DNA of 64,000 bases from the NCBI GenBank assembly GCA_963744145.1, contig CAVUSO010000001.1, forward strand, positions 3,104,001 to 3,168,000. The letters run 5' to 3'. The position numbers and the translations under genes are program-made. This document shows, one piece after another, positions 4,764 to 37,653 of the stretch. Source of the DNA: an uncultured cyanobacterium. Lineage in GTDB: Bacteria > Cyanobacteriota > Cyanobacteriia > Cyanobacteriales > CAWUOF01. Below the pieces are notes generated by a model, which was not told where the DNA came from, searched no databases, and worked only from the letters and a program-made list of their open reading frames with translations. Position 1 is the stretch's first letter, and the number at the start of each line of letters is the position of its first letter.

Positions 4764-5705
4764 CTAATCATGTAAAGTCCCATCGGGCATAGTTGCTCCA
4801 GTCAAAATTGTCCCTTGTTTTTCTGCGGTATTCAAATTAGCATCCCACAGATAAGCCCCCCGTAAACTAGTCGCTGTTAAATTAGCATCCCAAAGATTAG
4901 CTTTAATTAAATTTGCTCCAGTTAAATCCGCTTCACTCAAATCCGCTTCATGCAAATTTGCTTTACTTAAATTTGCTTCGCACAAATCTGCTTTCGCGAG
5001 ATTTGCTCGTACTAAATTAGTTCTATACAAATTTGACCGAGACAGTAGCGTCACCCGTAATTCAGCATCACTCAAGTTAGCTGTGTTTAAGTTAGCTTTA
5101 CTCAAATTAGCACCACTTAATTTTGCCATACTTAAATCTACCCCATCCAAATCTACTTCATGTAAATCTACCCCATTCAAATATGCACCACTCAGTTTTA
5201 CTCCATTCAGTAAAGCTCCTCCCAACAAAGCACCACTCAATCTAGCACCACATAGGTTAGCCCAATTTAGATTAGCTTTAACTAGATTAGCAGAGCGTAA
5301 ATTTATCCCTCGCAAATCTGCACCGCAAAAATTAACTTCACCTAAATTAGCTAAACGTAGATTTACTCCAGTTAAGATTGCTCCACTCAATTTTGCTTTG
5401 GTTAAGATTGATTTAACTAAGTAAGCTCCTTGGAGATTAGCTTTGGTTAAATCAGCATTGATCAGTCTTGCTTCATTAATCTTGGCAAAACTCAAATTAG
5501 CTCGATATAATATAGTTGCACCCAGATTAGCTCCCGTTAACACAGCTCGACTAAGATTAACTGCGGTCAGATTAGCACCGGAAAAATTAGCACCAACTAA
5601 GGTCATTCTTTCCAGGTTAGCTCCGTAGAGATTAAGATCACGAAAATCTCGTTCTCCGCTTGTATATCGCTTAAATAATTCAGTCGATTCCATCATATTC
5701 CTCAT
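4764..5705 (-). CDS. Pentapeptide repeat protein
   Basis: A(N/D)LxG repeats; RYxxGERDF N-cap and GATMPDG C-cap. Confidence 0.95.
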   Translation of the reverse strand: MRNMMESTELFKRYTSGERDFRDLNLYGANLERMTLVGANFSGANLTAVNLSRAVLTGANLGATILYRANLSFAKINEARLINADLTKANLQGAYLVKSILTKAKLSGAILTGVNLRLANLGEVNFCGADLRGINLRSANLVKANLNWANLCGARLSGALLGGALLNGVKLSGAYLNGVDLHEVDLDGVDLSMAKLSGANLSKANLNTANLSDAELRVTLLSRSNLYRTNLVRANLAKADLCEANLSKANLHEADLSEADLTGANLIKANLWDANLTATSLRGAYLWDANLNTAEKQGTILTGATMPDGTLHD

Positions 5706-6004: not shown

Positions 6005-6619
6005 TTATTCGTCGTAGATGCGAGCCTCGAACGCATCGGGATTTTCTTCACAGTAAATCTCAAAAGCGGTTTTCAGAGGTTTTTGTGCCCGCTGATGAGC
6101 AGCTTCAGCTTGCAATTCTTCAACGGTATCCCAAGCAACCGCACATTCTTTAGAACCAGCACCTTTACTCAGACCAATAGCACGAGCTTCAGCAATGGCT
6201 TTTTCAATTTCTTCTTGAAGAACCAGACTTTTTGGTTTTTCTACAAAGTCACCTTTAGTCAGAATATCCGTAATCGAAATCACACCGAGTAACTTGTCCC
6301 TAATGACTGGAGCTTGATGAATACCAGTATGGGCAAATAATCTCGCTACATACTCCACACCTAGATCGGGATTAACCACAATACAAGGTTTAGTCATAAT
6401 TTCGTAGACGCGAACACTCTTAGGATCTTTTCCAAAAGCCGCAACCTTGTATACCACATCAGTTTCTGTCACTATGCCATAGGGATCGGCGGCATGACGC
6501 TGTTGTACTACCAAAGTATGTAGTTTTTTTTCTTTCATTAGTAACACTGCATCAGCCACAGTAGCCGAGCCGCGAATAGTGACCACATCTTTGGTCATAA
6601 TATCTTCGGCTTTCATCAT
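6005..6619 (-). CDS. CBS-CP12 fusion protein
   Basis: Tandem CBS pair, then the CP12 signature AWDTVEEL and YCEENPDAxEARIYD. Confidence 0.92.
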   Translation of the reverse strand: MMKAEDIMTKDVVTIRGSATVADAVLLMKEKKLHTLVVQQRHAADPYGIVTETDVVYKVAAFGKDPKSVRVYEIMTKPCIVVNPDLGVEYVARLFAHTGIHQAPVIRDKLLGVISITDILTKGDFVEKPKSLVLQEEIEKAIAEARAIGLSKGAGSKECAVAWDTVEELQAEAAHQRAQKPLKTAFEIYCEENPDAFEARIYDE

Positions 6620-9504: not shown

Positions 9505-9805
9505 CTGCGACCTCGTCAATTACTTATAAGTAAGCAAGTTTAGTTGTAAATTAGTAGTCCAGCATAGATGATCAGCAAAAAGCACCTCACCTTTTCAGTC
9601 TCTGATCCCAGTTGATGGGCGCTGAAAAATTTTTCCAGCCATCTCCACCGTTGATCCAAAAAAGAAGATAAACAGACATAGATCCTGAGACAATTCAAAG
9701 TGGTCATTAGTTAGCGATCGTGGATAGATTTGCCCAAAAAGTAAGAAACTAGAAATAACTAATGACGATCAGGAAATGTTCCGGGTGGAAAGCCCGCACT
9801 AGCAA

Positions 9806-11491
9806 ATGACAATTGACAACTTTAGAAGCAAAGTCGTAACACAGGGTGTACAGCGATCGCCAAACCGGGCGATGCTGCGTGCAGTTGGTTTTGGTGACCA
9901 GGATTTTACTAAAGCCATTGTTGGCATTGCCAATGGTTATAGCACGATCACTCCTTGCAATATGGGCATCAATGATTTAGCCAAGCGAGCTGAGACTAGT
10001 TGTCGAGCTGCGGGTGCTATGCCCCAAATGTTTGGCACGATTACGGTCAGCGATGGGATCTCGATGGGCACGGAGGGAATGAAGTATTCTTTGGTGTCCC
10101 GCGAGGTGATTGCTGATTCCATCGAAACGGCTTGTAATGGCCAGAGTATGGATGGAGTGTTGGCGATCGGCGGCTGTGACAAGAATATGCCAGGGGCGAT
10201 GATCGCGATCGCCAGGATGAATATTCCCGCCATATTTGTCTATGGTGGCACAATTAAACCCGGACATCACAATGGACGGGATTTAACTGTGGTCAGCGCC
10301 TTTGAGGCAGTGGGACAATACAGCGCGGGAAAAATTGATGACGCTGAATTGTTTGAGGTGGAACGCAAAGCCTGCCCTGGTGCAGGTTCTTGCGGAGGTA
10401 TGTATACTGCTAATACCATGTCTTCTGCCTTTGAGGCAATTGGTATGAGTTTGCCATATTCCTCCACCATGGCAGCAGAAGATGAGGAAAAAGCAGATAG
10501 TGCTGAAAAATCAGCCCTAGTTCTGGTCGATGCGATTCGTCAACAACTTTTGCCACGTCAGATTTTAACTCGGAAAGCCTTTGAAAATGCGATCGCGGTA
10601 GTGATGGCGGTAGGTGGCTCAACTAATGCGATCTTGCATCTATTAGCGATCGCCCATGCGGCTGGAGTCGAACTAGCTTTAGATGATTTTGAAACGATTC
10701 GCGCTCGGGTTCCGGTGCTGTGCGATCTCAAACCTTCTGGTCAGTATGTAGCTTGTGATTTACATCGAGTCGGTGGGATTCCCCAAGTCATGAAAATGCT
10801 CTTAGTACATGATTTATTGCATGGGGATGCGCTGACGATTACCGGACAAACGATCGCCGAAGTTTTAGCTGATATTCCTGACGAACCACCAGCAGGTCAA
10901 GATGTGATTCGTCCTTGGCATCATCCCATGTATGCTCAAGGTCATTTGGCAATTTTACGAGGTAATTTAGCCACAGAAGGTGCCGTTGCGAAAATTACTG
11001 GCATCAAAAAATCCCAAATTACTGGTCCAGCTCGGGTCTTTGAATCGGAAGAATCCTGCTTAGAGGCAATTTTAGCTGGCAAAATTAAAGCTGGTGATGT
11101 AATTGTGATTCGCTACGAAGGTCCGAAAGGTGGTCCGGGAATGCGGGAAATGTTAGCCCCAACTTCGGCTATTATCGGTGCTGGATTAGGAGATGCGGTC
11201 GGATTAATTACTGATGGTCGCTTCTCTGGTGGGACTTATGGGATGGTGGTTGGTCATGTAGCTCCGGAAGCTGCGGTTGGTGGGGCGATCGCACTTGTCC
11301 AAGAGGGTGATCAGATTACGATTGATGCTCCTGGACGGTTGTTACAATTGCAGGTTTCTGAGCAAGAATTGGCAAATCGTCGCGCTCAATGGCAACCTCC
11401 TAAACCTCGCTATACTAAAGGCGTATTAGCTAAATATGCGAAGTTAGTATCTTCGAGCAGTGTTGGTGCTGTAACTGATTTGGAACTATAA
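9806..11491 (+). CDS. ilvD: Dihydroxy-acid dehydratase
   Basis: [46 protein letters not shown]. Confidence 0.98.
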
Positions 11492-25470: not shown

Positions 25471-28400
25471 ATGATGAAAAATTTTCCAGGGTATCAGCAT
25501 TTACGGCAAATTTACGACGGTGAAAACTCGCGGGTCTATCGCGCTCAACGGATTGAAGATCAGCAACCCACGATCCTGAAAATCCTCAAAGCAGAATATC
25601 CAACTCCCGACCAACTCAGACGTTATCGACAAGAGTATTACTTAACGCGATCGCTAGAGTTACCCAATGTAATTAAAGCTTATGGGTTAGAAGAATGGCA
25701 AAAAACCCTAGTAATTATTTTTGAAGATTTTGGTGGGGTTGCGTTGAAAGAGTGGTTGAAACAATACCCCCAGGGATTACCGCTTAATTTATTTCTGCTC
25801 ATAGCATTGGAAATTGCTAATGCTTTGGGTCAACTCCATAGTCAAGCTATTATTCATAAAGATATCAATCCAGCGAATATTGTCCTTAACCCAGAGACAA
25901 TGGTAATCAAACTGATCGATCTAGGTATTTCGACTCAACTCAGTCGGGAAAATCCGGTATTGCAATCCCCACTTTTTCTAGAAGGAACCTTATTGTATAT
26001 TTCCCCAGAACAAACCGGAAGGATGAATCGAGTAGTAGACTACCGTACCGATTTTTATTCTTTAGGAGTTACTTTCTATGAGTTATTGACAGGTAGATTA
26101 CCATTTATCAGCAATGATCCAATGGAATTAGTCCATTGCCAAATTGCTAAACAGCCTGTTTCCTTGGTAGAAATTAAAGGTGGAGAGATTCCCCAGATGC
26201 TGGTAGAAATAGTCAGCAAATTGATGGCAAAAAATGCTGAAGAGCGTTACCAAAGTGCTTGGGGACTGAAAGCAGATTGAGAAGAGTGTTTAATTAATTG
26301 GGAAAAAACCGGAACGATCGCAGTTTTTCCTATAGGTAGGAATGATATTGCCGATCAGTTTCAAATTCCGCAGAAGCTCTATGGTCGAGAGCGAGAAATA
26401 GCAGCATTATTAACAGCTTTTGAACGGATCGCAAGAGGTAAATCAACATTAGAAATTAGCAATCATGGGGCAGAGATTGTTCTGGTCACAGGTTACTCTG
26501 GAATTGGCAAATCAGCTCTAGTGCGATCGCTCTACCAACCGATGACAGCAAAAAGAGGATATTTCATTTCTGGGAAGTTTGACCAGTTTCAGCGAAATAT
26601 TCCCTATTCAGCTCTAGTAGATGCTTTGACCAACTTAGTGAAGCAACTATTAGGAGAGCCAGAAACAGTTCTTCAGCAATGGCAAAAACAATTATTACAA
26701 GCATTGGGAAACAACGGGCAAATCGCGATCGAGGTGATTCCTGATCTGGAATTAATTATTGGTAAACAACCACCCGTACCAGAATTGGGACCGATCGAAT
26801 CCCAAAATCGATTTAACTTAGTTTTTCAACAGTTGATCCAAGCATTATGTCAACCAGATCATCCCCTGGTCATGTTTCTGGATGATATGCAATGGACAGA
26901 TTTAGCCACATTAAGTCTATTGGAACAACTTTTGGGAGACAGTCAAATCCATAATTTATTACTAATTATTGCCTATCGAGACAATGAATTAGGGAGTGGT
27001 CATCCCCTCGATTTAGCGATCGCCCAACTGCAACGCAAGGAAGTCAATCTCGAACAAATTACCTTAACACCACTACCTTTAGACCAAATTGCACTACTAA
27101 TAGCAGAAACTCTACAATGTGAAACCCAATCAGTCTATGGGTTAGCTGAATTAGTGAAGCACAAAACCCAGGGAAATCCATTTTTTACCAATCAATTTCT
27201 CAAAACTCTTTATAGCGAAGGCTTACTGGTATTCAATCACATTTTAGCCTGTTGGCAATGGGATTTAGCCCGAATTGAGGGGATAGGTTTTACCGATAAT
27301 GTGGTGGAACTGATGATCGGACAATTGCAAAAGTTGCCCAAATCGGTGCAAGGGGTACTATCCACTGCGGCATATTTGGGGACAGAATTTGATCTCAAAA
27401 CCCTATCCTTGATCGAGAATCAAACACCAACAGTGATCTTTGCAGACCTCAAACTAGCAATGGAAGCGGGATTTGTGGTAGCGCGATCGCATCTAGATGA
27501 AAACTTGCTAATTCAAAATTACCAGTTCGGACATGATCAGATTCAACAAGCTGCTTATGTCCTGATTCCCGCAGATGAACAGGTAGCCAAGCATTTACAA
27601 ATCGGACGTATCTTATTAGAGAAAATTACCCATACCGATCTAGATGATAACTTGTTTGATATTGTCGATCACCTCAATCAAGGTCTAGCGCAGGTGAGTG
27701 ATCCTCATGAAAGGGAGGATTTTGCTCGTTTAAATCTCAGAGCAGGACAAAAGGCGATCGGTGCTTCTGCTTATCAAGTAGCGATCACTTACCTACAACA
27801 GGGAATTTTTCTTTTGAGTCCAAATTCTTGGGAATGTCAGTATGGTTTGAGCTTATTGTTGCATGAAGAAGCAGTCAAAGCAGCTTTCCTCAGTGGTGAA
27901 CTGGAGTTAATGGAACATCTGAGCGCGATCGTGATGACCAAAGCCCACACTGCTTTAGAACAGGTAAAAGTAAGTACGATTCTAATTGAAGCCTATGGCA
28001 ATCAGGGCAAACTCTTAAAAGCAATTGATATTGGCTTAGATATCTTAGCCCAACTAGGGATTATATTTCCGAAAACACCACAAGATGCTGATTGTGCCCA
28101 ATCTTTAGAAAAGATCGAAAGACTTCTGGCTGATAAACAACCAGGTGAACTAATTAATCTAGCCGAAATGCAAGATCCGATCGCCTTAGCAGCGTTGCAT
28201 CTTCTAGTTAAATTAAGACCTGTGGTTTTTACTAGCTCCCTAGCCTGCTTAAATTTGTTAATCACTCTCAAAGAAATAGAGCTTTCTATCTTTTATGGCA
28301 ATGCACCGCTTTCTGCAATAGCTTACTCCGCCTATGGACTATTTCTCTGTAGTCATGGTAGAAATAATATAGACAGAGGATATGCTTTTGGTGAATTGGC

Positions 28401-30573
28401 GCTGACCCTCATCTCACAGTCTGATAGTAAGGAATTTGAAACTACTGTCAAGATGATCGTACATTCCTTTATCAGTCACTGGAAAATTCATTTAAAAGAG
28501 ACTTTAGAACCCCTACAATCCGCCCATAATGTTGGTTTAGCTGTCGGAAATTTTGCTTATGCTGGCTATACCGCGTTTGACTATTGTACTCATGCCTATC
28601 TAATCGGTAAACCCCTCTCGGAGGTACAGCAAGAAATGCAACATTACAGTGCAGCTCTGAAGCGGATGGGTCAGCAATCTGCCCTATTCTATCTCCAAGG
28701 ATACCATCAGGCAGTGGTAAATCTGATGGATTCATCCTCCCAAACTTACAACTTTGCCGGAGAAATATTTGATGAACAAGAAGTGATTGAGCTGTTGAAG
28801 TTACAACAGAATCAAGCAGGACTATGGCATTTATATACGGTAAAACTGCCTTTATGCTATCTGTTTGAAGAATTTGTCCTCGCTCATCAAATTAGTGAAC
28901 TTGCGAAGCAATGTATTGGTAGTGGTATGGCTGGAGTTGCTGTACCGATTCTCTATTTTTACGATTCTCTCTGTTGTCTAGCACTGATGTCAGAAAAATC
29001 AATTCCAGAGTCGGATTTACTTTGGCAACAGGTAGAAGCGAATCAGCATTTGATGGAATATTGGAGTGTTTCAGCTCCCATGAATTATCGTCACAAGTTC
29101 GATTTAGTTGCAGCCGAACGCCAAAGACTATTAGGAGAAAAGCTAGCAGCGATCGCTCTGTATGAGAGTTCGATCGCTGGAGCTAAAGAACATGGTTATA
29201 TTCAAGAAGCAGCTTTAGCTAACGAACTCGCGGCTAAATTTTACCTAAGTTGGGGAATGGAAAAAATTGCTCAAGCTTATCTACAAGAGGCTCATTACTA
29301 CTACCTCTGTTGGGGTGCAACTGCGAAAGTTCATCATCTAGAAACTCGCTATCCCCAGTTTTTTGTAAGTGAACGATCGTCTTGTTTACCTATTTCTCGG
29401 ACTTCTCTTAATAGCAGTAGTAATAGTAGTAGTGCAGCTCTCGATTTGTCTACGGTGATGAAATCTTCTCAGGCGATCGCGAGTGAAATTGTGTTAGAAA
29501 ATCTCTTGCAGACTTTGATGAAAATTCTGCTAGAAAATGCGGGGGCACAGATGGGGTGTTTGTTGTTACCAACATCAACAACTTTAGGAACATCGACTAA
29601 GTTTTCGATCGCGATTTATCACCATGCTAATGGTACTAACTCTTATCCGACCCAAGCAATCAATCTAATTTTGCCAGAATCGTTGCTTCATTATGTAGCG
29701 CGTACCCATAAAAGTGTAATTCTTGATAATCCGGTAAATTCGGGTAACTTCAGCCGTGATCCTTATATTCAATCAGTACAACCACTTTCGATTTTATGCT
29801 ATCCGTTACTCAATCAAGGTGAATTAGTGGGGATAATTTATTTAGAACATCAAGTTACTACAGGAGCTTTTACTAGCACTCAGGTGGAGTTATTGCAATT
29901 ATTGAGCGGACAAGCGGCGATCGCGATTACTAATGCTCAACTTTATGCCAAAGTTAGAAATAGTGAAAAAATTCTGAGCAATTACAATCGCACTTTAGAG
30001 CAGCAAGTAGCAGAACGTACCGCAGCATTACAACGCGCTAATCAAGAATTAGCTCGACTAGCAATATTAGATGGTTTAACTAAAATTGCTAATCGTCGTC
30101 GCTTTGATGACTATTTGATGAGAGAGTGGGAACGACATCTTCAGGAACAACAATCTCTAGCTTTAATTTTAATTGATATCGATTATTTCAAACGTTATAA
30201 TGATCACTATGGACATCAGGGTGGTGATGAATGTTTAATTCGAGTAGCTCAGACTCTTGCTCAAGTCCCCCAATATCCTCACGATTTAGTTGCCCGTTAT
30301 GGTGGTGAAGAATTTGCTGCAATTTTGCCTAATACTAATATCAATGGTGCCTTAATTGTCGCTGAGTCTATCCGACAAGCGATCGCTGCTCTTGCTATTC
30401 CCCACGCTCAATCGGAGGTGAAAGAATATGTTACCTTAAGTTTAGGTGTAGCGGCTATTATTCCCACTCTTGATCAACAACCAGAAGAGTTAATTGCCCA
30501 AGCTGATCAAGCTCTTTACCGTGCCAAACATCAAGGTCGCGATCGCGCGATCGCCTATAGAAATATAATTTGA
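25471..30573 (+). pseudogene. Ser/Thr kinase-AAA ATPase-GAF-diguanylate cyclase, interrupted by one in-frame TGA
   Basis: IIHKDINPxN kinase, GYSGIGKS Walker A, GAF, ARYGGEEF; TGA at 26278 with the same frame continuing. Confidence 0.88.
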
Positions 30574-30920
30574 GTCGAATTGAATAAAAAATAGCAGGAG
30601 TTAATCACTTAGAAATCAAGGAAAGTCAAGTTGATCTAAACCAACTGCTCGGACTCATTATAAGCATTATATTTACTGACCAACTAAAAAAATAAAGCTG
30701 TATATAAAGTGGCATAGATAATTGGGTAATATCGGGTCAGATCAATGCTCTGGTAAAAAAAATGTAGTATACTAAACTCAGAGTGATGTGAGATTTTGAG
30801 ACATGACCTAGTAAAGATTTACAATTAATATGCTAAAAAACATCAAGGTGCTTTTCCTACTACCTCGGTCATATTTTCTCAAGTCTAATACTCGTTTATT
30901 TGACAACTACCTCCATTGTT

Positions 30921-31814
30921 ATGAAAAAATTGCTGAGATTTTTCTACTACCAAATTTTTGATATGCTGTCAGATGTTACAGTAGCCCACATTAGTTTTTT
31001 TATATCACATCGGCGTCAGCTGAATTTAAAAGGTGATACATTTAGCGATCGGATCACCTTCAGACGACTTTACCCATTATGTGCTGATTTTTGCATACTG
31101 ACAGATAAATATGAGGTGAGAAATTATGTAACCCAAAGAATTGGGAGCGAGTATCTAATTCCTTTACTCGCAATCACCGATGATGCAGAGAAAATAAATT
31201 TTGCCGCACTCCCGAATCAATTTGTGATGAAATCAAATCATGCTACTCAAAGAATCGAGCTGGTGTTTGATAAATCTAAAATCGAGGTAGAAGGTTTGCG
31301 AAAAATTGCCAGTGATTGGCTGAAGTATGATTTTTATAAAGCAACGCGGGAACAACATTATAAGGATATCCAGAGAAAAATTTTATTTGAAGAATTGCTG
31401 CTTGATGAAAATGGTAAGGTGCCCACCGACTACAAGTTCCATTGTTTCCGAAAAAATGGGGTGTTAAATCAATTTATTCAGGTAAATAGTAATCGCTTTG
31501 CTAACCATACTCTGGATTTTTTTGATTTGCAATGGAATAGATTGAATATTAAATTGCACTATCCTACATCATCTGTGCCCCCTGCTCGTCCCACCTTGTT
31601 AAACAAAATGTCGGAAATTGCCGCGATCCTTTCGGAGCAATTTAATTATATCCGGGTTGATTTATATTGTGTGAAAAACCAAATATTCTTTGGTGAATTA
31701 ACATTTACTCCTGGATGTGGATTGAAAAAAATGTATCCTCAGCAGGTTGATCGAGAATGGGGTATGCTGTTTGAGCCAGATGAGTTTTTCTATGGTGAGA
31801 TGAAGTGTAAGTAA
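30921..31814 (+). CDS. TupA-like ATP-grasp protein
   Basis: TDKYEVRxYV, LPNQFVMKSNH, DYKFHCF, RVDLY, FGELTFTP. Confidence 0.88.
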   Translation: MKKLLRFFYYQIFDMLSDVTVAHISFFISHRRQLNLKGDTFSDRITFRRLYPLCADFCILTDKYEVRNYVTQRIGSEYLIPLLAITDDAEKINFAALPNQFVMKSNHATQRIELVFDKSKIEVEGLRKIASDWLKYDFYKATREQHYKDIQRKILFEELLLDENGKVPTDYKFHCFRKNGVLNQFIQVNSNRFANHTLDFFDLQWNRLNIKLHYPTSSVPPARPTLLNKMSEIAAILSEQFNYIRVDLYCVKNQIFFGELTFTPGCGLKKMYPQQVDREWGMLFEPDEFFYGEMKCK

Positions 31815-31996: not shown

Positions 31997-32025
31997 TTGA
32001 CAAAGTTGTAGTATGTGTGTAATAT
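31997..32025 (+). promoter_or_regulatory. Sigma70-type promoter of the Ro-like operon, with two operator-like repeats
   Basis: TTGACA-17 nt-TAATAT; TGTAGTAT (32007) and TGTAATAT (32018) overlap the spacer and -10. Confidence 0.75.
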
Positions 32026-32096: not shown

Positions 32097-32315
<219 letters not shown>

Positions 32316-32368: not shown

Positions 32369-32499
32369 TCACTTCGCGCCCTGACAAAAAAAGCTTACAT
32401 ACTAGCCGAATTGGTACAGGCACTTGAATTCTAAATCAAGCGATTGCAGGTTCAAATCCTGCGTATAAGCAAACAGCTTTTTTAACTTGCGTGAAGTGA
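32369..32499 (+). ncRNA. tRNA-like cloverleaf (32393-32471) enclosed by an 11-bp outer stem; candidate Y-like RNA
   Basis: D arm GCC-GAATTGGTACA-GGC; anticodon arm CTTGA-ATTCTAAA-TCAAG; T arm GCAGG-TTCAAAT-CCTGC; bulged acceptor stem; outer TCACTTCGCGC/GCGTGAAGTGA, then T8. Confidence 0.8.
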
Positions 32500-32526
32500 T
32501 TTTTTTTGGGGTAAAGTGTCAATAAT

Positions 32527-32615
32527 GGCAGTTAAGTCGCACCCTCATCGGTAAAGCTAATCTAGCTTGATCACCAACTTGTGCGGAGATCTATCATTTG
32601 TGTGCGAAAACTGCC
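32527..32615 (+). ncRNA. Second end-paired structured RNA upstream of the Ro-like gene
   Basis: GGCAGTT/AACTGCC and TCGCAC/GTGCGA terminal stems; internal AAGCTA-atc-TAGCTT hairpin. Confidence 0.55.
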
Positions 32616-32646: not shown

Positions 32647-34086
<1,440 letters not shown>

Positions 34087-34114: not shown

Positions 34115-34169
34115 CATTATTTTATGATTAGTGCTAGTTATCTCCCTTGGGGGTGCTATAATCATAATT

Positions 34170-34724
34170 ATGGACAATCCTCGGTTAGTAAAAATTAGCA
34201 AATATCTGAGCAAACATCTCCGACATCAACCTGAGCAAATTGGACTGGTCCTAGGAGTAGGTGGTTGGGTTTCTGTCGAAGAACTTCTGAGTGCTTGTGA
34301 AAAACACTCCTTTCCTATTACCCGTTTAGAATTAGATGAAGTAGTTGTAAATAATGATAAAAAACGGTTTTCTTTTGATGCTACTAACACTCAGATTCGC
34401 GCTAACCAAGGTCATAGTATCGAAATTGATTTACAATTAGAGCCAGCTATACCTCCAGCTATATTGTATCATGGTACAAGTGATCAGGTCGTACCATCAA
34501 TTTTAGACCAAGGTATTGGCAAAATGTCGCGCCATCATGTACATTTATCTACAGAAATTTCGATCGCACGAAATGTAGGTGCAAGACACGGTCGTCCGGT
34601 TGTTTTCGCGGTAGATACAGCCAAAATGCACCAAGATGGTTATATATTTTATTGTTCTGACAATGGAGTTTGGTTAGTTGATCACGTACCTGCTGAATAT
34701 TTACAAAAGATTGATCTAATTTAG
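34170..34724 (+). CDS. kptA: RNA 2'-phosphotransferase Tpt1/KptA
   Basis: SKxLSxxLRH, KKRF, IRANQGHS, LYHGT, RHHVHLS, NGVWL. Confidence 0.95.
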   Translation: MDNPRLVKISKYLSKHLRHQPEQIGLVLGVGGWVSVEELLSACEKHSFPITRLELDEVVVNNDKKRFSFDATNTQIRANQGHSIEIDLQLEPAIPPAILYHGTSDQVVPSILDQGIGKMSRHHVHLSTEISIARNVGARHGRPVVFAVDTAKMHQDGYIFYCSDNGVWLVDHVPAEYLQKIDLI

Positions 34725-34767: not shown

Positions 34768-35974
34768 ATGGGTTCAGGATCTTTTTGGAACGATGATTCT
34801 ACCGGACAAAATAATGTCCAAAGTCGAGGTTTACTCGCATCAGGTTGGAGACCATTATCACGACAGATTGATTTATCATTCCTGTTGCATTTAGCTACTA
34901 ACGATACCTGGGAATTAACACAAAAAACTCTAGATTTAGCGAGTGATATTGCAGATGCGATCGGACGTTCGAGATTATACTTGGTGGGCTAACATTTTAA
35001 ATATATTTTCCGAAAATACTCGCTATGAAATAGATGAATTTTGGAATTATATTACTCCCGAACCACCTGCACCTGATGAACAATTTAAAGATGTTTTAAG
35101 TATTGAAACTCCTACTGTGCAAATCGTTAGTCGTGATAGTATTCCGATTGATTATGTTTTGAATCGTCTCCGGGAAATTATTGTCATGAAAGTTCTAGAT
35201 TTATTAGGACGTCCAGAATTAATTACCCAAGACTATCTAGAACGACATTTCTATTATCCCGTCGAACGATTTCTCAATTGGGAAAGAATGGAAGCGATCG
35301 GTACAGTTTACGCTTATTGGTCACAGCATCAAGTTTGGTTGCAAATTAATAGTTCTGGAAGAGGAAGAAGACGTTATACTCTCATCGCTAAGGATATTGC
35401 ACCTTTAGTGAATAAATCAACCTATAATCTAGCAGTCATGTTGAGTGGTTATCAAAGTCGGGTTGGTCAGGTGCAAAGTCAGTTTCCGATTCGGACTTTT
35501 CCTAAAGATATTCAAAATTTTACTGATATTGTTCAACAAGCTATTATTGATCAAAATCAGTTAGCTGTGTTAGTACATGGAGATCCAGGAACAGGAAAAA
35601 CTGCATGGACTCAAGCAGTAGCAAAAGAAATTTTGATGCCCTTAGGATATGTTATTTTTATCTTAGATCATGATGCGGTCGAAAATTTTGTCCCCCAAAA
35701 TTATTTGCAACGGGTTTGTCTGATTATTAATGAAGCAGATAATTTAGCTCAAGATCGATCTACTGAAGTTGCTCAACGTAGTAGTAAAACTGAACATATT
35801 TTGAGTTTGCTAGATGGAACTTTATATCAGAGTGTAGTTGATGAAAATGGGTTACAATCAGAGCAAAGATTAGTAGTATTGATGACTTGTAATACTACAG
35901 AAAGGTTAGATCCAGCAGTTTTACGCAAGGGACGGGTTGATTTGATGTATGAATTTACCGAAAAGTTTATCTAG
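34768..35974 (+). pseudogene. AAA+ ATPase split by a +1 frameshift near 34970
   Basis: ORF 34768-34992 joins ORF 34943-35974 if one base is removed; GDPGTGKT, IINEAD, TCNTTERLDPAVLRKGRVD. Confidence 0.75.
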
Positions 35975-35995: not shown

Positions 35996-36832
35996 ATGCT
36001 TAAGATTGAGCAGTTACTTCACCAAATTGCTACCCAAGAAAAAGAATTTTGTGCTACCCAATTTCTAGCTCCATCAGTGGTCGGAGGAAAGGTGCGATCG
36101 CGAGTATCAGGTCTGATCTATACTTTTACAATTAAACCCCAGCAATTTACTGGTTGGGGAATATTTCAACCTCTGAATTCTACCGTAGCTGAGTTGGTTA
36201 CTGAAGCAGATTTACCCCAGATTGCTGAATATATGCAATATATGTCACCCATGCGTTTTTGGTTAGCTTATGCTTTACAAAAAAACACTTGGCTCGCATA
36301 TCCAATTAATGAATCTGATGCTCAACAACGTTTTGGTATTACTAAACCAGTTCCGATCCATTTAGTCAGTAATGGTGCAGTTTTTGAACAAATTATTGCC
36401 CGATGGGATGGAGGTAATTGGTGGTTTGAAGATTATGATCGTCGAGCTGATCCTTTTTTATCAGAAAACCTGACAACCGCTTTAAAAGAAATTACTCTAC
36501 CAGCTAAACTTCGGTTTAAAGGAATGACACCAGAAATGAAAATAGTTTATCAGTTGGTAACCCAGCAACAAGCAGAATTTAAAGCCAAAATGGAGTTACA
36601 AACTGATGCAGAAAAACTTGCTCAAGCATTAAAATTAGGTGGAGGAGAATTACAAAAATTTCGCGATCGCGATGATTACTGGGTCGTAGAGTGGACTACT
36701 GGATATGGAGAACATCATACCAGTGCGATCGCTAAAAGTGACCTAACTGTAATCAGTGCAGGAATTTGTCTAAGTGGACTAGATCGAGATTTTGATTTAT
36801 CATCTTTAGTGGGTGTCGTGGAATCTCGATAG
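35996..36832 (+). CDS. Hypothetical protein with C-terminal SAGICLSGxDxDFDL motif (possible E2-like)
   Basis: Co-oriented in the operon; Cys in a GICL context. Confidence 0.7.
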   Translation: MLKIEQLLHQIATQEKEFCATQFLAPSVVGGKVRSRVSGLIYTFTIKPQQFTGWGIFQPLNSTVAELVTEADLPQIAEYMQYMSPMRFWLAYALQKNTWLAYPINESDAQQRFGITKPVPIHLVSNGAVFEQIIARWDGGNWWFEDYDRRADPFLSENLTTALKEITLPAKLRFKGMTPEMKIVYQLVTQQQAEFKAKMELQTDAEKLAQALKLGGGELQKFRDRDDYWVVEWTTGYGEHHTSAIAKSDLTVISAGICLSGLDRDFDLSSLVGVVESR

Positions 36833-37017: not shown

Positions 37018-37653
37018 ATGTCTATATTCTTCCATGAACAACTCTATCGAACTCAACCAGTCATGGTGCAATTAACAAATTTTGCTGTGACTGTTTGTGG
37101 TGCTGGTGCGATCGGAGCTAACCTGACCGAAAGTTTAGCTCGATCGGGTTTAGCAAAATTAAAAGTAATTGATCGCGATCGCATTGAAGAACGTAATTTG
37201 TCAACTCAACCTTATTATCGAGCTGATGTTGGTGCTTGCAAAGCCAAAATATTAGCTCATCATCTTTATCGTGCTTTAGGAGTAAAAATTGAGGGTCAAT
37301 CTCAAGAATTAACTCCTAAAAATGTCAAAGAATTATTAAAAAATAGTGACTTAGTTATTGATTCCTTTGATAATAGTATCGGACGTCAAATAGTTAAAGA
37401 TTATTGTTTAGCAGCAAATCTTCCTTGTTTGCACATCGGATTAGCTAGTGACTATGGGGAAATTATCTGGAACAATTCTTATCGCGTTCCTTCTGGAGCT
37501 AATGATGATATTTGTGATTATCCATTAGCGAGAAATTTAGTCATGCTTACCGTTGCGATCGCAGCTGAAGTAATTATTAAGTTTATTGCTACTGGTAAAC
37601 AAGAGAGTTTTACTATTACCTTAGCAGATTTTGGGATTCAACAGTTTCATTAA
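37018..37653 (+). CDS. ThiF/MoeB/E1-family adenylyltransferase
   Basis: GAGAIG, DRDRIEERNLSTQ, IDSFDN, DDICDY; no CxxC zinc pairs. Confidence 0.9.
   Translation: MSIFFHEQLYRTQPVMVQLTNFAVTVCGAGAIGANLTESLARSGLAKLKVIDRDRIEERNLSTQPYYRADVGACKAKILAHHLYRALGVKIEGQSQELTPKNVKELLKNSDLVIDSFDNSIGRQIVKDYCLAANLPCLHIGLASDYGEIIWNNSYRVPSGANDDICDYPLARNLVMLTVAIAAEVIIKFIATGKQESFTITLADFGIQQFH

Follow-up and report, generated by a model that had tools for sequence, protein, structure and literature searches.

The role of bacterial Y RNAs, and the reason for their mimicry of tRNA, are to our knowledge still open questions. In the closest described system, YrlA, the tRNA-like module is circularly permuted, running from the T arm through a closed acceptor hairpin to the D arm; according to excerpts of PMC4201824 and 10.1101/312249 an anticodon loop is missing, and the stem exits where the anticodon stem would be. 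Chen et al. give the motif GNCGAA for the strands that bind Ro60, and it appears in their alignment of YrlA RNAs from cyanobacteria (excerpts of PMC4201824). Yrn1 of D. radiodurans has the orientation opposite to that of YrlA (Chen et al. 2014, excerpts of PMC4201824), and the same excerpts place a stem-loop of 5 bp with a 6-nt loop between its D-like and T arms, where a tRNA has its anticodon arm. Yrn1 binds Rsr and tethers PNPase (excerpts of 10.1101/312249).

Here, we analyse a cyanobacterial locus in a window of 64 kb, the whole stretch of DNA studied, in which a Ro60-type system is accompanied by a complete copy of a tRNA, anticodon loop included. Positions 32369-32507 very probably hold the gene of a Y RNA, and we consider it rather likely that this is a non-permuted, tRNA-type Y RNA of a divergent Ro60-like RNP, whose stalk would display a tRNA surface for bait or docking. 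This subtype is apparently new; Burroughs & Aravind (2016) or Sim et al. (2020) may already cover portions of the system.

A tRNA cloverleaf within two outer helices

The element comprises 139 bases of the forward strand, on which the empty hairpin and the genes of the 66-aa and 477-aa proteins described below also lie, and consists of a tRNA cloverleaf and two enclosing helices. The outer stalk helix, P1, pairs 32369-32379 with 32489-32499 in 11 bp, one of them G-U. It is followed by an internal loop with CCTGAC on the 5′ side (32380-32385; family consensus CCCUAAC including the closing C) and AACTT on the 3′ side (32484-32488, alignment columns 150-153), and then by the inner stalk helix, P2, with its 5′ strand at 32386-32395 and its 3′ strand at 32475-32483. 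The 9 bp of P2 join 32387-32395 to 32475-32483 and are seen both in the pairing and in family covariation. The original prediction, made from the sequence by itself, had described the 11-bp helix that closes the RNA ahead of a T8 run (32500-32507), and this helix covaries in the family. It had taken the flanking AAAAAAGCT/AGCTTTTTT for a competitor of the acceptor stem; these strands instead form P2, the conserved second helix of the stalk.

The tRNA-like body (32396-32470) is recognised by ARAGORN, by the Rfam tRNA model and by family covariation of the D, anticodon and T stems. As predicted, its D arm carries GG, its anticodon arm (32423-32440) has a stem of 32423-32427/32436-32440 closing the 8-nt loop ATTCTAAA (32428-32435), and its T arm (32446-32462) has a T loop with TTCAAAT. 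The 2-nt bulge proposed for the acceptor stem belongs to one possible pairing, but alignment to the family places the stem at 32396-32402/32463-32469, where this copy has two mismatches and a G-U besides four Watson-Crick pairs; pairing GCTT with AAGC would be in competition with P2, which is conserved. At the junction of acceptor stem and P2, in the position of the CCA end, lies the unpaired tail AAAC (32471-32474, alignment columns 134-139). Positions 32470-32474 read CAAAC, so the absence of an encoded CCA was correctly foreseen.

ARAGORN reports this element as the single tRNA of the 64 kb, with the anticodon 'tcta'. The Rfam tRNA model (RF00005; gathering score 29) matches it at 38.9 bits, with an E of 1.1e-4 for the window and an alignment confined to model positions 4-67. 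Besides tRNA, Rfam at E up to 10 returned just chance-level matches to Plastid-ycf2 antisense and TeloSII, and YrlA (RF02553, gathering score 69 bits) had no match between 31500 and 33500 at E up to 10. The single-sequence fold of -39.9 kcal/mol (z -3.92), equalled by 0 of 200 shuffles, retains P1 as well as the anticodon and T arms. Promoter-like sites around the element are no more frequent than in shuffles, and a terminator scan called no terminator-like site, the T8 run included. The host genome has 62 other tRNAs, two tRNA-Arg(tct) among them, and the tRNA-like body is at most 73% similar to any tRNA of this genome.

A divergent Ro60-like protein encoded downstream

The gene that starts 150 nt downstream of the element (32653-34086) encodes a protein of 477 aa that profile, fold and motif assign to Ro60/Rsr. 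It combines a helical ring with a vWA domain bearing a DxSxS..T..D MIDAS motif; D300, S302, S304 and D386 are invariant in its family, and vWA_Ro60 was detected in 15 of 52 relatives. In the PDB, the family profile reaches chains of Ro60 and of TROVE (E 1.4e-17 to 2.3e-7), and with the AF2 model (pLDDT 91.5) the 12 best PDB matches of Foldseek are all Ro60/Rsr, with TM 0.52-0.65 over nearly the full length. Pfam TROVE (PF05731) does not match the protein: the genome-wide search with this model found two other ORFs and not this one, while Pfam, NCBIfam and PADLOC gave only weak, sub-threshold vWA-type matches. Since Pfam TROVE finds no match yet the family profile reaches Ro60 chains, the protein is a divergent branch of Ro60/Rsr outside the Pfam TROVE threshold. 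With 957 clusters at 50% identity, it adds a large family, overlooked by Pfam TROVE, to the Ro60 clade.

A covarying RNA family

At a threshold of 84 bits or more, the covariance model R1, which now defines and detects the tRNA-type RNA, counts 119 elements in 73 of the 80 loci encoding a relative of the 477-aa protein, every one on the strand of that gene. ARAGORN independently reports 117 tRNA-like genes in related loci. 'Full-length' R1 matches of 30-56 bits in the host's own genome turned out to be mostly ordinary tRNAs with their flanks forced into the model; own-genome matches were kept only if the stalk motifs were present.

The 136-position architecture recurs in the family and covaries. 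We evaluated a 41-pair structure over 114 distinct elements, using structures with slid partners as controls. Paired cells amount to 92.2% (34-54% in the controls), double changes affect 23 of the 41 pairs (controls 6-10) and 540 cells (controls 37-92), and the covariation score of 0.38 (controls 0.06-0.10) was reached by 0 of 500 shuffles. Unaided, RNAalifold finds both stalk helices and the D, anticodon and T stems. Across the related loci the stalk and all tRNA arms covary: P1 (columns 8-17/154-163) has double-sided changes in 7 of 10 pairs and 93.9% of its cells paired, and P2 (columns 24-33/140-149) has double changes in 4 pairs and 90.4% of its cells paired. The internal loop between them is near-invariant on its 5′ side (columns 18-23, mean entropy 0.37 bit) and has a mean entropy of 0.10 bit on its 3′ side, and is a putative protein-binding site. 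G-U occurs at two P1 pairs, in 32 and 27 of the 114 sequences, which fits an RNA read from the forward strand only. An integron attC-like site was also considered and ruled out, the two loop motifs being non-complementary and the G-U pairs marking the RNA strand.

Because it recurs in 119 elements of 73/80 loci and covaries, the architecture of 32369-32507 is well above chance. Together with the Ro60/Rsr-like gene downstream, the covarying outer helices bear out the original view of a distinct Y-like RNA that is not a normal tRNA; its further suggestion of a tRNA-shaped switch found no support. The ribotoxin decoy, also suggested there, gains some indirect backing from the fast-changing anticodon and from a sister RNA that mimics the sarcin-ricin loop, and is a candidate function. 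Within the family the outer stem is kept, unlike the T8 tail and the 8-nt loop. A run of five or more T follows P1 in just 7 of 114 elements, and the T8 run is no family feature.

Evolution of the anticodon loop

The anticodon loop has 7 nt in 101 of the 114 elements and 6 nt in 11. An 8-nt loop, present in this copy as predicted, was counted in just 2 and is not a trait of the family; the other of these two, in L066, fits a 6-nt loop equally well and provides no second case. U33 is kept in 112/114 elements and a purine at position 37 likewise in 112/114. The anticodon columns have an entropy of 1.4-1.7 bits, and 28 different anticodons occur, including cta (21), tta (3) and tca (2). We compared 613 pairs of elements with a divergence of 8% or less elsewhere. 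The difference amounts to 34.9% at the three anticodon positions, as opposed to 16.6% in the 5′ flank, 10.3% in the 3′ flank and about 4% in the stems; the pairs are non-independent and the flanks may be partly constrained. Anticodon turnover between close relatives is thus about twice that of the flanking DNA; the part of a tRNA that nucleases read outpaces its neighbourhood in change. This free evolution could reflect relaxed constraint instead of selection.

The D arm, the T arm and the elbow nucleotides are the conserved portions of the tRNA body, the 5′ acceptor strand has an entropy near 0 across the family, and an A-A mismatch stands at 2:71 in 68 of 114 elements. In sum, the element has the cloverleaf of a tRNA with D, anticodon and T arms and elbow nucleotides, and as encoded it lacks both the 7-nt loop with an anticodon conserved among orthologues and the free 5′ end with a 3′ NCCA on a matched 7-bp acceptor. 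It is most probably not a decoding tRNA, because the anticodon is unconstrained, the acceptor is uniform and mismatched, and both ends are locked in helices. Annotation pipelines label such elements tRNA-Pyl, -SeC, -Stop or 'undetermined', and such labels can give rise to mistaken reports of natural suppressors or of quadruplet decoding.

Sister RNAs on the same stalk

In the same arrays, the same stalk also carries other cargos: permuted modules of the YrlA type, a mimic that combines the 23S sarcin-ricin loop with the GTPase centre, and short empty hairpins. Hence one handle bears look-alikes of both tRNA and rRNA, and the host genome also has these kinds of cargo. A permuted sister RNA scores 23.6 bits against Rfam YrlA, whose gathering score is 69. 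Two stalk RNAs of the host genome are located far away from all Ro-like genes, within an array that comprises at least 10 tRNA genes. At the present locus, a motif scan (CCTCAT / AACTT) located a second, 'empty' stalk copy without cargo at 32537-32587, 65 nt ahead of the Ro60-like start codon. It folds into P1, loop and P2 with a z of only -1.06, and may be an operator or 5′-UTR copy.

Gene neighbourhood and distribution

The commonest protein neighbour of the RNA array, present in 69 of 81 loci, is a conserved protein of 66 aa, here encoded at 32115-32315. Its C-terminus ...RPEAVYG is invariant and its model has a pLDDT of 89. Foldseek gave weak matches, mainly ubiquitin, ISG15 and PB1, with no PDB match at E 1e-3 or better, and PADLOC, NCBIfam and Pfam returned nothing at the thresholds used. 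Because of these weak hits, the order of strands and helix, and the C-terminal Gly, the model is read as a probable ubiquitin-like beta-grasp protein. No PADLOC model matches the core genes. For the neighbours of 241, 153 and 278 aa Pfam and PADLOC were empty, and for the first of them the ESM Atlas gives only unnamed, partly viral clusters.

Further neighbours at this locus are Tpt1/KptA, directly downstream, an AAA ATPase and a ThiF-like E1. Among loci these neighbours vary and include Tpt1, RNA ligase, AAA ATPase, E1-like and nuclease-like genes; Tpt1 is found in 1/81 loci, RNA ligase in L001, the sole locus where that gene was scanned, and no ribonuclease is a constant neighbour among the loci. 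The gene of the AAA ATPase lies 2.5 kb downstream and requires a shift of +1 within TCGAGAT (34969-34975), where AGAT stands in place of the single codon of 9/9 homologues; the site is equally readable as TCGA + GAT. Split genes are common in such loci and occur in 2 of 8 Microcoleus loci.

The system is patchy, being present in 12 of 151 sampled genomes of the phylum and in 7 of 80 genera. Its carriers number at least 165 and include the culturable strains Fischerella muscicola PCC 7414, Calothrix sp. NIES-4101 and Nostoc sp. NIES-4103. The family extends to Myxococcota and to two phage records. A 595-kb phage record and an IMG/VR contig contain a homologue together with tRNA-type RNAs mounted on stalks, whose P1 has changed on both strands. 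The patchy spread, the variable neighbours and the phage copies have the flavour of a conflict system.

A proposed role and its alternatives

Adjoining the gene of the Ro60-like protein, the element is most likely its partner RNA. Its ends pair into a long stem separate from the effector module, and cargo varies on a constant stalk, as expected of Y RNAs. The stalk, made of P1, an asymmetric internal loop and P2, is the common handle of the RNAs beside the Ro60-like gene, and we propose that it would be their protein contact. As the 5′ strand of P2 runs straight into the acceptor stem, the cargo is a complete non-permuted tRNA body, with the position of the CCA end looped out as a bulge of 4-6 nt. 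Cut out of the operon transcript, the RNA would be seated with its stalk on the Ro60-like ring and offer a tRNA-shaped surface, anticodon loop included, to tRNA-recognising proteins. The stalk is without the GNCGAA motif, so that its putative binding by the Ro60-like protein is argued by analogy only. The element probably displays a surface for bait or docking.

We prefer bait. The presumed targets would be tRNA-directed ribonucleases, that is anticodon nucleases of phages, toxin-antitoxin systems or competitors. The sister RNAs would show the 23S sarcin-ricin loop and GTPase centre on an identical stalk, and RNA-end-healing or effector genes, at this locus Tpt1/KptA, the AAA ATPase and the ThiF-like E1, adjoin. 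A bait or decoy function of the tRNA-type RNA is nevertheless put forward tentatively.

The main alternative is a Y RNA whose tRNA body tethers a tRNA-binding enzyme to the Ro60-like ring, with a ligase, Tpt1, PNPase, RNase P or the CCA-adding enzyme as candidates, which would make the particle a platform of RNA repair or quality control instead of a decoy. It follows the published view of Ro/TROVE with a tRNA-like partner (excerpts of PMC7824862) and the way Yrn1 tethers PNPase to Rsr (excerpts of 10.1101/312249), and it suits Tpt1/KptA directly downstream, the RNA ligase of L001 and the conservation of the D and T arms and elbow nucleotides. For docking, however, an anticodon loop is superfluous, YrlA being described without one (excerpts of 10.1101/312249), and here the loop keeps its shape (U33, R37) while its triplet outpaces the flanks. 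Docking also leaves the mimicry of rRNA ribotoxin targets by the sister RNAs unexplained, and the repair genes are inconstant neighbours. On this balance we regard an adaptor as unlikely.

Position and orientation invite a cis-regulatory reading. The element and the empty hairpin both lie just 5′ of the ATG at 32653 on the same strand, T8 directly follows P1 in this copy, and stalk-only short RNAs stand immediately 5′ of the Ro60-like gene in 11 of the 16 loci examined. They could be operators or attenuators in the leader of that gene, through which the protein controls its own operon, with P1 and T8 as a terminator. Yet tRNA-type copies are found up to about 2.5 kb upstream with other genes between, the stalk RNAs of the tRNA array are distant from Ro-like genes, the T run is confined to the few elements counted above, and a full tRNA fold with covarying arms exceeds what an operator needs. 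For the tRNA-type element such a role is highly improbable, and it may apply to the empty hairpin by itself.

The element might also be a working tRNA precursor with an odd conserved leader and trailer, here a +1 frameshift or nonsense suppressor that carries UCU with an extra base or reads a quadruplet with UCUA. Its Rfam tRNA score above threshold, a CCA in the tail of 47/114 elements, the cleavage of M. smegmatis YrlA by RNase P and its gain of CCA (excerpts of PMC4201824), and the AGA at the ATPase shift site, a codon of the UCU anticodon, all point this way. Against this, the anticodon is not conserved and the loops have 6-8 nt; the acceptor is identical whatever the anticodon, with its A-A mismatch at 2:71, and is weakened further in this copy by two mismatches and a G-U; the base ahead of position 1 is paired in P2, and the ends lie in covarying helices. 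The Ro60-like gene is full-length in all 80 loci (residues 1-477, or from 2 or 5), those with 'cta' elements included. The shift site has its alternative reading TCGA + GAT, split genes are common, and UCUA would read UAGA, which is absent from the site. A working tRNA is thus extremely unlikely. A decayed tRNA pseudogene with flanks paired by chance would explain the 8-nt loop, the weak acceptor stem and the missing CCA of this copy, but is contradicted by an architecture shared by 119 elements in 73/80 loci with compensatory changes in every helix, by the reach of the family to Myxococcota and two phage records and by a body that is no near copy of any host tRNA, and has practically no probability left.

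Returning to bait, a more far-reaching version can be formulated, which we hold to be speculative and rather unlikely. The Ro60-like protein and its RNA array would form a bait library that soaks up or senses ribotoxins from phages, toxin-antitoxin modules and competitors and is coupled to repair or effector genes. On the constant stalk it would show the targets of ribotoxins, namely whole tRNAs with ever-changing anticodons and the sarcin-ricin loop/GTPase centre, and the copy owned by very large phages would be a counter-defence. If true, Y RNAs would have to be seen in a new light, as mimics of targets within the translation machinery. Target mimicry for sensing or decoying toxins can now be tested in culturable Fischerella, Calothrix and Nostoc.

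Comparison with known systems

Cyanobacterial L-arrays (PMC8421152) resemble the present system in that two of the stalk RNAs sit within such an array in the host genome. They differ in that the arrays are presented as tRNA gene sets; in the text of PMC8421152 the words YrlA, Ro60, tRNA-like and 23S do not occur. With tmRNA and viral tRNA-like structures the element shares a mimicry of tRNA that includes the T arm, whereas those have a free, chargeable CCA (excerpts of 10.1101/312249) and here the end continues into a helix. As in metazoan Y RNAs, the paired ends of the element would form the stem that binds the protein; in both, this stem contains a conserved bulge or loop and adjoins an effector module that varies, and the predicted partner of the element has the Ro60 fold. 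The loops of metazoan Y RNAs, in contrast, are not tRNA-like, and their binding motif is unlike the putative site on this stalk.

Closer still is YrlA (RF02553). Both are encoded beside a Ro60-type gene and are modular, the two RNA ends building a terminal stem to which a tRNA-like module with a D and a T arm is attached, both exist in class I and class II versions, the latter with a long variable arm (for YrlA, excerpts of 10.1101/312249), and permuted YrlA-type modules ride the identical stalk in the arrays studied here. The element differs from YrlA in its tRNA order of D, anticodon and T arms, its open acceptor and complete anticodon arm, its stalk exiting from the acceptor stem, and another conserved stalk loop, whose consensus is without the GNCGAA(N)G motif. 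The topology was rightly predicted to be unlike that of the permuted YrlA. It is not wholly unprecedented, since Yrn1 is already non-permuted (excerpts of PMC4201824) and, by its published description there, has the same topology as this element, whose body for its part possesses all four arms and scores above the Rfam threshold for tRNA.

A structured RNA family linked to a Ro60-like gene

The element at window positions 32369–32507 (+) consists of a 75-nt tRNA-like body (32396–32470) mounted on a stalk. In this stalk the outer helix P1 pairs 11 nt at 32369–32379 with 32489–32499, the inner helix P2 pairs an A-rich strand at 32386–32395 with 32475–32483, and an internal loop between them has 6 nt on its 5' side (32380–32385) and AACTT on its 3' side (32484–32488). 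Four unpaired nucleotides (32471–32474) separate the body from the 3' strand of P2, and eight T (32500–32507) follow P1. ARAGORN reports this element as the sole tRNA in 64 kb, of unnamed type, with anticodon 'tcta' in an 8-nt loop. The Rfam tRNA model scores it at 38.9 bits (gathering score 29) over model positions 4–67 only, so the outer acceptor pairs misfit the model; among the other Rfam families, searched up to an E-value of 10, there were only two chance-level matches. A fold of the 139 nt by themselves (−39.9 kcal/mol, z −3.92) retains the T and anticodon arms together with P1. The original prediction of a tRNA mimic inside an outer helix was accurate. A promoter-like site lies at 31997–32025, and such sites are no commoner than chance in the promoter scan.

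Downstream lies a gene for a 477-aa protein, and a scan for its relatives identified 165 places. The best 80 loci, nearly all from cyanobacteria and one from Myxococcota, contain 117 tRNA-like genes according to ARAGORN, one to three per locus, all upstream of the Ro60-like gene and on its strand, under names such as Pyl, SeC, Stop, Phe, Lys, Leu and '???'. The flanks are common to the window copy and 116 of these calls; one call in L040 without the 5' motif was dropped. An alignment of 114 distinct elements served as the source of a covariance model, R1, which, at a score of at least 84 bits, detects 119 elements, every one on the + strand, in 73 of the 80 loci; the Myxococcota locus has a single element (84.5 bits). 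Four of the seven loci without an element end within 400 nt upstream (L032, L035, L052 and L054); L003, L018 and L022 have a full flank and still no R1 match of at least 84 bits. When the phylum was sampled evenly, 12 of 151 genomes and 7 of 80 genera had the element (E 1e-14 or better), a patchy distribution.

The alignment reveals extensive covariation. RNAalifold, unaided, predicted P1, P2 and the D, anticodon and T stems, with compensatory changes in 19 of 29 pairs. Counted over a 41-pair structure (P1 10, P2 10, acceptor 7, D 4, anticodon 5 and T 5 bp), 92.2% of cells are paired, versus 34–54% when partners are slid by 1–3 columns; pairs changed on both sides number 23 versus 6–10, and cells changed on both sides 540 versus 37–92. 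The covariation score of 0.380 (0.06–0.10 in the slid controls) was reached by none of 500 shuffles. G-U pairs are frequent in P1, as would be expected if the RNA is read from the + strand. In the acceptor stem the 5' strand is invariant and no covariation is seen in this alignment; position 2:71 is mismatched as A-A in 68 of 114 elements. P2 continues unbroken into the acceptor stem on the 5' side, and on the 3' side 4–6 unpaired bases take the place of the discriminator base and CCA; CCA occurs in this stretch in 47 of 114 elements and is absent from the window copy. Both sides of the P1/P2 internal loop are the most conserved unpaired parts of the family and likely contact protein. Taken as a whole, the family is a conserved structured RNA tied to the Ro60-like gene. 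Several features that the original prediction emphasized belong to the window copy and not to the family: an 8-nt loop occurs in only 2 of 114 elements and the T tail in 7, and the 2-nt acceptor bulge is a possible pairing in this copy, one option among others.

One stalk, several cargos

Lower-scoring R1 matches in the same arrays have the stalk (P1, P2 and the loop motifs) and the first acceptor bases in common and differ in the interior. Some are permuted modules of the YrlA kind, with T arm, closed hairpin and D arm in that order (e.g. L005 1742–1901 and L019 2599–2751). Others, about 215 nt long, have an insert that opens with the sarcin-ricin loop sequence and goes on into a look-alike of the GTPase-associated region of 23S rRNA (e.g. 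L005 4631–4849, with further sites in L086–L150 and at L045 5996–6215). The pattern of stalk end plus sarcin-ricin motif was found in 65 loci, nearly all cyanobacterial, with the 5' loop motif in 64, and no Rfam family was found for this RNA. In several cases the Ro60-like gene precedes the RNA by a few kb on one and the same contig (L095/L012, L117/L013, L148/L009, and L133 within L005). Among 16 loci examined, 11 have a short RNA of 86–92 nt, almost free of cargo, immediately upstream of the Ro60-like gene. An empty stalk of this kind is found in the window at 32537–32587 (+), 65 nt ahead of the start codon of the Ro60-like gene; it has P1, both loop motifs and P2, capped by a 5-nt loop. Its role may be that of an autoregulatory operator, or it may be a Y RNA in minimal form.

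The source genome holds two further cargos in a long tRNA array at 5.725 Mb of the chromosome (L081 9314–11500, −; at least ten tRNA genes), at a great distance from Ro-like genes. A YrlA-type permuted RNA on the same stalk (L081 9003–9161, −) matches Rfam YrlA at 23.6 bits, under the gathering score of 69. The other is a sarcin-ricin/GTPase-region RNA of about 215 nt (G000:C1:5725680–5725900, L081 ~9680–9925, −), whose GTPase-centre part is identical to the 23S copies at 39 of 47 positions; of the four occurrences of the 12-nt sarcin-ricin motif on the chromosome, three are in 23S genes and the fourth is in this RNA. These findings establish a modular design of constant stalk and variable cargo. 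Elsewhere on the chromosome, two short stalk-only RNAs (L160 ~5086–5157 and 6194–6264, −; G000:C1:6652085–6652169 and 6653193–6653276) bracket a MazE/MazF-type pair of 77 and 117 aa (PemK_toxin, E 4.6e-28).

A divergent Ro60 branch

The 477-aa protein (32653–34086, +) has no match in Pfam or NCBIfam at normal thresholds and shows only a weak vWA signal. Its family is large: one collection holds over 3,100 of the proteins, and a second has 957 clusters at 50% identity. A profile built from 52 diverse family members matches human Ro60 (E 1.4e-17), Xenopus Ro60 (5.5e-14) and, at 2.5e-13, two structures of TROVE proteins, as well as D. radiodurans Rsr (2.3e-7); the Pfam Ro60-type vWA domain is found in 15 of the 52, and the MIDAS residues are invariant in their alignment. 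The 12 best PDB matches of the AlphaFold model (pLDDT 91.5) are Ro60, Rsr or TROVE chains aligned over near the whole length (TM 0.52–0.65), with isolated vWA domains ranking below. As profile and fold point to Ro60, yet the genome-wide search with Pfam TROVE misses the protein, it is a divergent Ro60 branch. The same search found two canonical TROVE ORFs of 559 and 544 aa (G000:C1:5214600 and 7520827, −; L082–L085), which gives the genome three Ro-type proteins. Each canonical ORF is accompanied by an Rfam tRNA-model match (122–138 nt, about 34 bits) that is presumably an RNA of the classical YrlA type.

Homologues of the 477-aa protein also occur in a 595-kb phage record (LR756511.1, L159; 48% identity) and an IMG/VR contig (L171; 43%). 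In both, stalk-mounted tRNA-type and YrlA-type RNAs lie upstream of the homologue (L159 1128–1267 and 3785–3925; L171 1944–2083 and 2161–2313); in the phage record P1 is altered on both strands.

Neighbouring genes

Of the neighbouring protein genes, the one that recurs most constantly, in 69 of 81 loci, encodes a 66-aa protein (32115–32315, +). The protein has an invariant C-terminus ending in Gly, a beta-grasp-like order of strands and helices and weak structural matches mostly to ubiquitin-like domains, and is probably ubiquitin-like itself. Downstream in the window are a Tpt1/KptA RNA 2'-phosphotransferase directly after the Ro60-like gene (34131–34724, +; NCBIfam NF002014, 271 bits), found in the window locus only (1 of 81), an AAA ATPase, a 278-aa protein (35996–36832, +) and a ThiF-like E1 (37018–37653, +), the latter two recurring downstream within 3-kb flanks in 24 and 13 loci, respectively. 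Together, the 66-aa protein, the E1 and the 278-aa protein hint at a conjugation module linked to the Ro60-like RNP. A paralogue of ribosomal protein L7/L12 accompanies 14 related loci (e.g. L046 2389–2781); single scanned loci have an EF-Ts paralogue (L015 4603–5328), an RNA ligase (L001 6164–7156), or vWA, GNAT, Phd antitoxin or nuclease-like proteins. The L7/L12 and EF-Ts paralogues, the RNA ligase and the tRNA and sarcin-ricin/GTPase-centre mimics are all parts touching translational GTPases. Upstream, genes for a 1350-aa AAA_16-GAF-GGDEF protein (26521–30573, +) and a TupA-like ATP-grasp protein (30900–31814, +) do not recur in related loci (1 of 81 each).

Bait, platform or decoder

Among the 114 elements there are 28 different anticodons, including all three nonsense anticodons, and anticodon loops of 7 nt (101 elements), 6 nt (11) or 8 nt (2). 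U33 and a purine at position 37 are each kept in 112, which indicates that loop shape is under selection and the triplet is not. In 613 pairs of elements differing by at most 8% elsewhere, anticodon positions differ at 34.9%, compared with 16.6% in the 5' flank, 10.3% in the 3' flank, 10.7% in the variable region and about 4% in stems; the ranking is unchanged in a stricter set of 228 pairs. The pattern resembles diversifying selection, although it is only suggestive since the pairs are non-independent.

We propose that the stalk would bind the Ro60-like protein, that the stalk RNAs would be processed out of operon transcripts, and that the tRNA body would be displayed to tRNA-recognising proteins. 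Our preferred reading is that this body may act as bait or decoy: loop shape is retained while the triplet turns over fast, a sister RNA copies other classical ribotoxin targets, distribution is patchy and neighbourhood variable, and the system also occurs in phages. An adaptor or RNA-repair platform would explain the system nearly as well as a bait; a review describes Ro/TROVE with a tRNA-like partner as an RNA repair platform and notes it in jumbo phages (PMC7824862).

Reading of a frameshifted gene was also considered. The AAA ATPase gene (34768–34992 and 34943–35974, +) is split by a +1 frameshift within 34969–34975, where the window has one base extra and 9 of 9 aligned homologues are in frame. 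One reading of the site places AGAT at a single codon; AGA is the codon of the UCU anticodon, and the nearby element has UCU within its 8-nt loop. A functional link is nevertheless highly improbable, because the site has a second reading (TCGA plus GAT), split genes are common in related loci, the acceptor stem of the window copy is poor and the family overall behaves unlike tRNAs; the frameshift is probably a mutation or a sequencing error. The family is not a decoder, given its 28 anticodons, its loops of 6–8 nt and a genome with a full set of 62 other tRNAs, two tRNA-Arg(tct) among them. A tRNA pseudogene is rejected by the covarying architecture shared by 119 elements in 73 of 80 loci and by a body at most 73% identical to any other tRNA of the genome.

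Comparison with known Y RNAs

A partial full-text search of the literature found no non-permuted tRNA-type Y RNA, no such stalk and no sarcin-ricin mimic on a Y RNA, and an earlier mention is possible. Three further tRNA mimics of bacteria are the subject of a 2026 preprint and, going by its abstract and outline, are RNAs different from the element. YrlA mimics a tRNA in circularly permuted order; its acceptor hairpin is closed, and it has no anticodon loop (PMC4201824; 10.1101/312249). The cyanobacterial YrlAs covered by Chen et al. partner with canonical Ro proteins of 533–534 aa and have a GNCGAA-type strand (PMC4201824). The element differs from YrlA in the order of its arms, the presence of an anticodon arm, the stalk motif and the branch of the protein. 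Its nearest precedent is Yrn1 of D. radiodurans, which the same source describes as having a non-permuted orientation, the feature by which the two are alike, and a rudimentary anticodon arm (PMC4201824).
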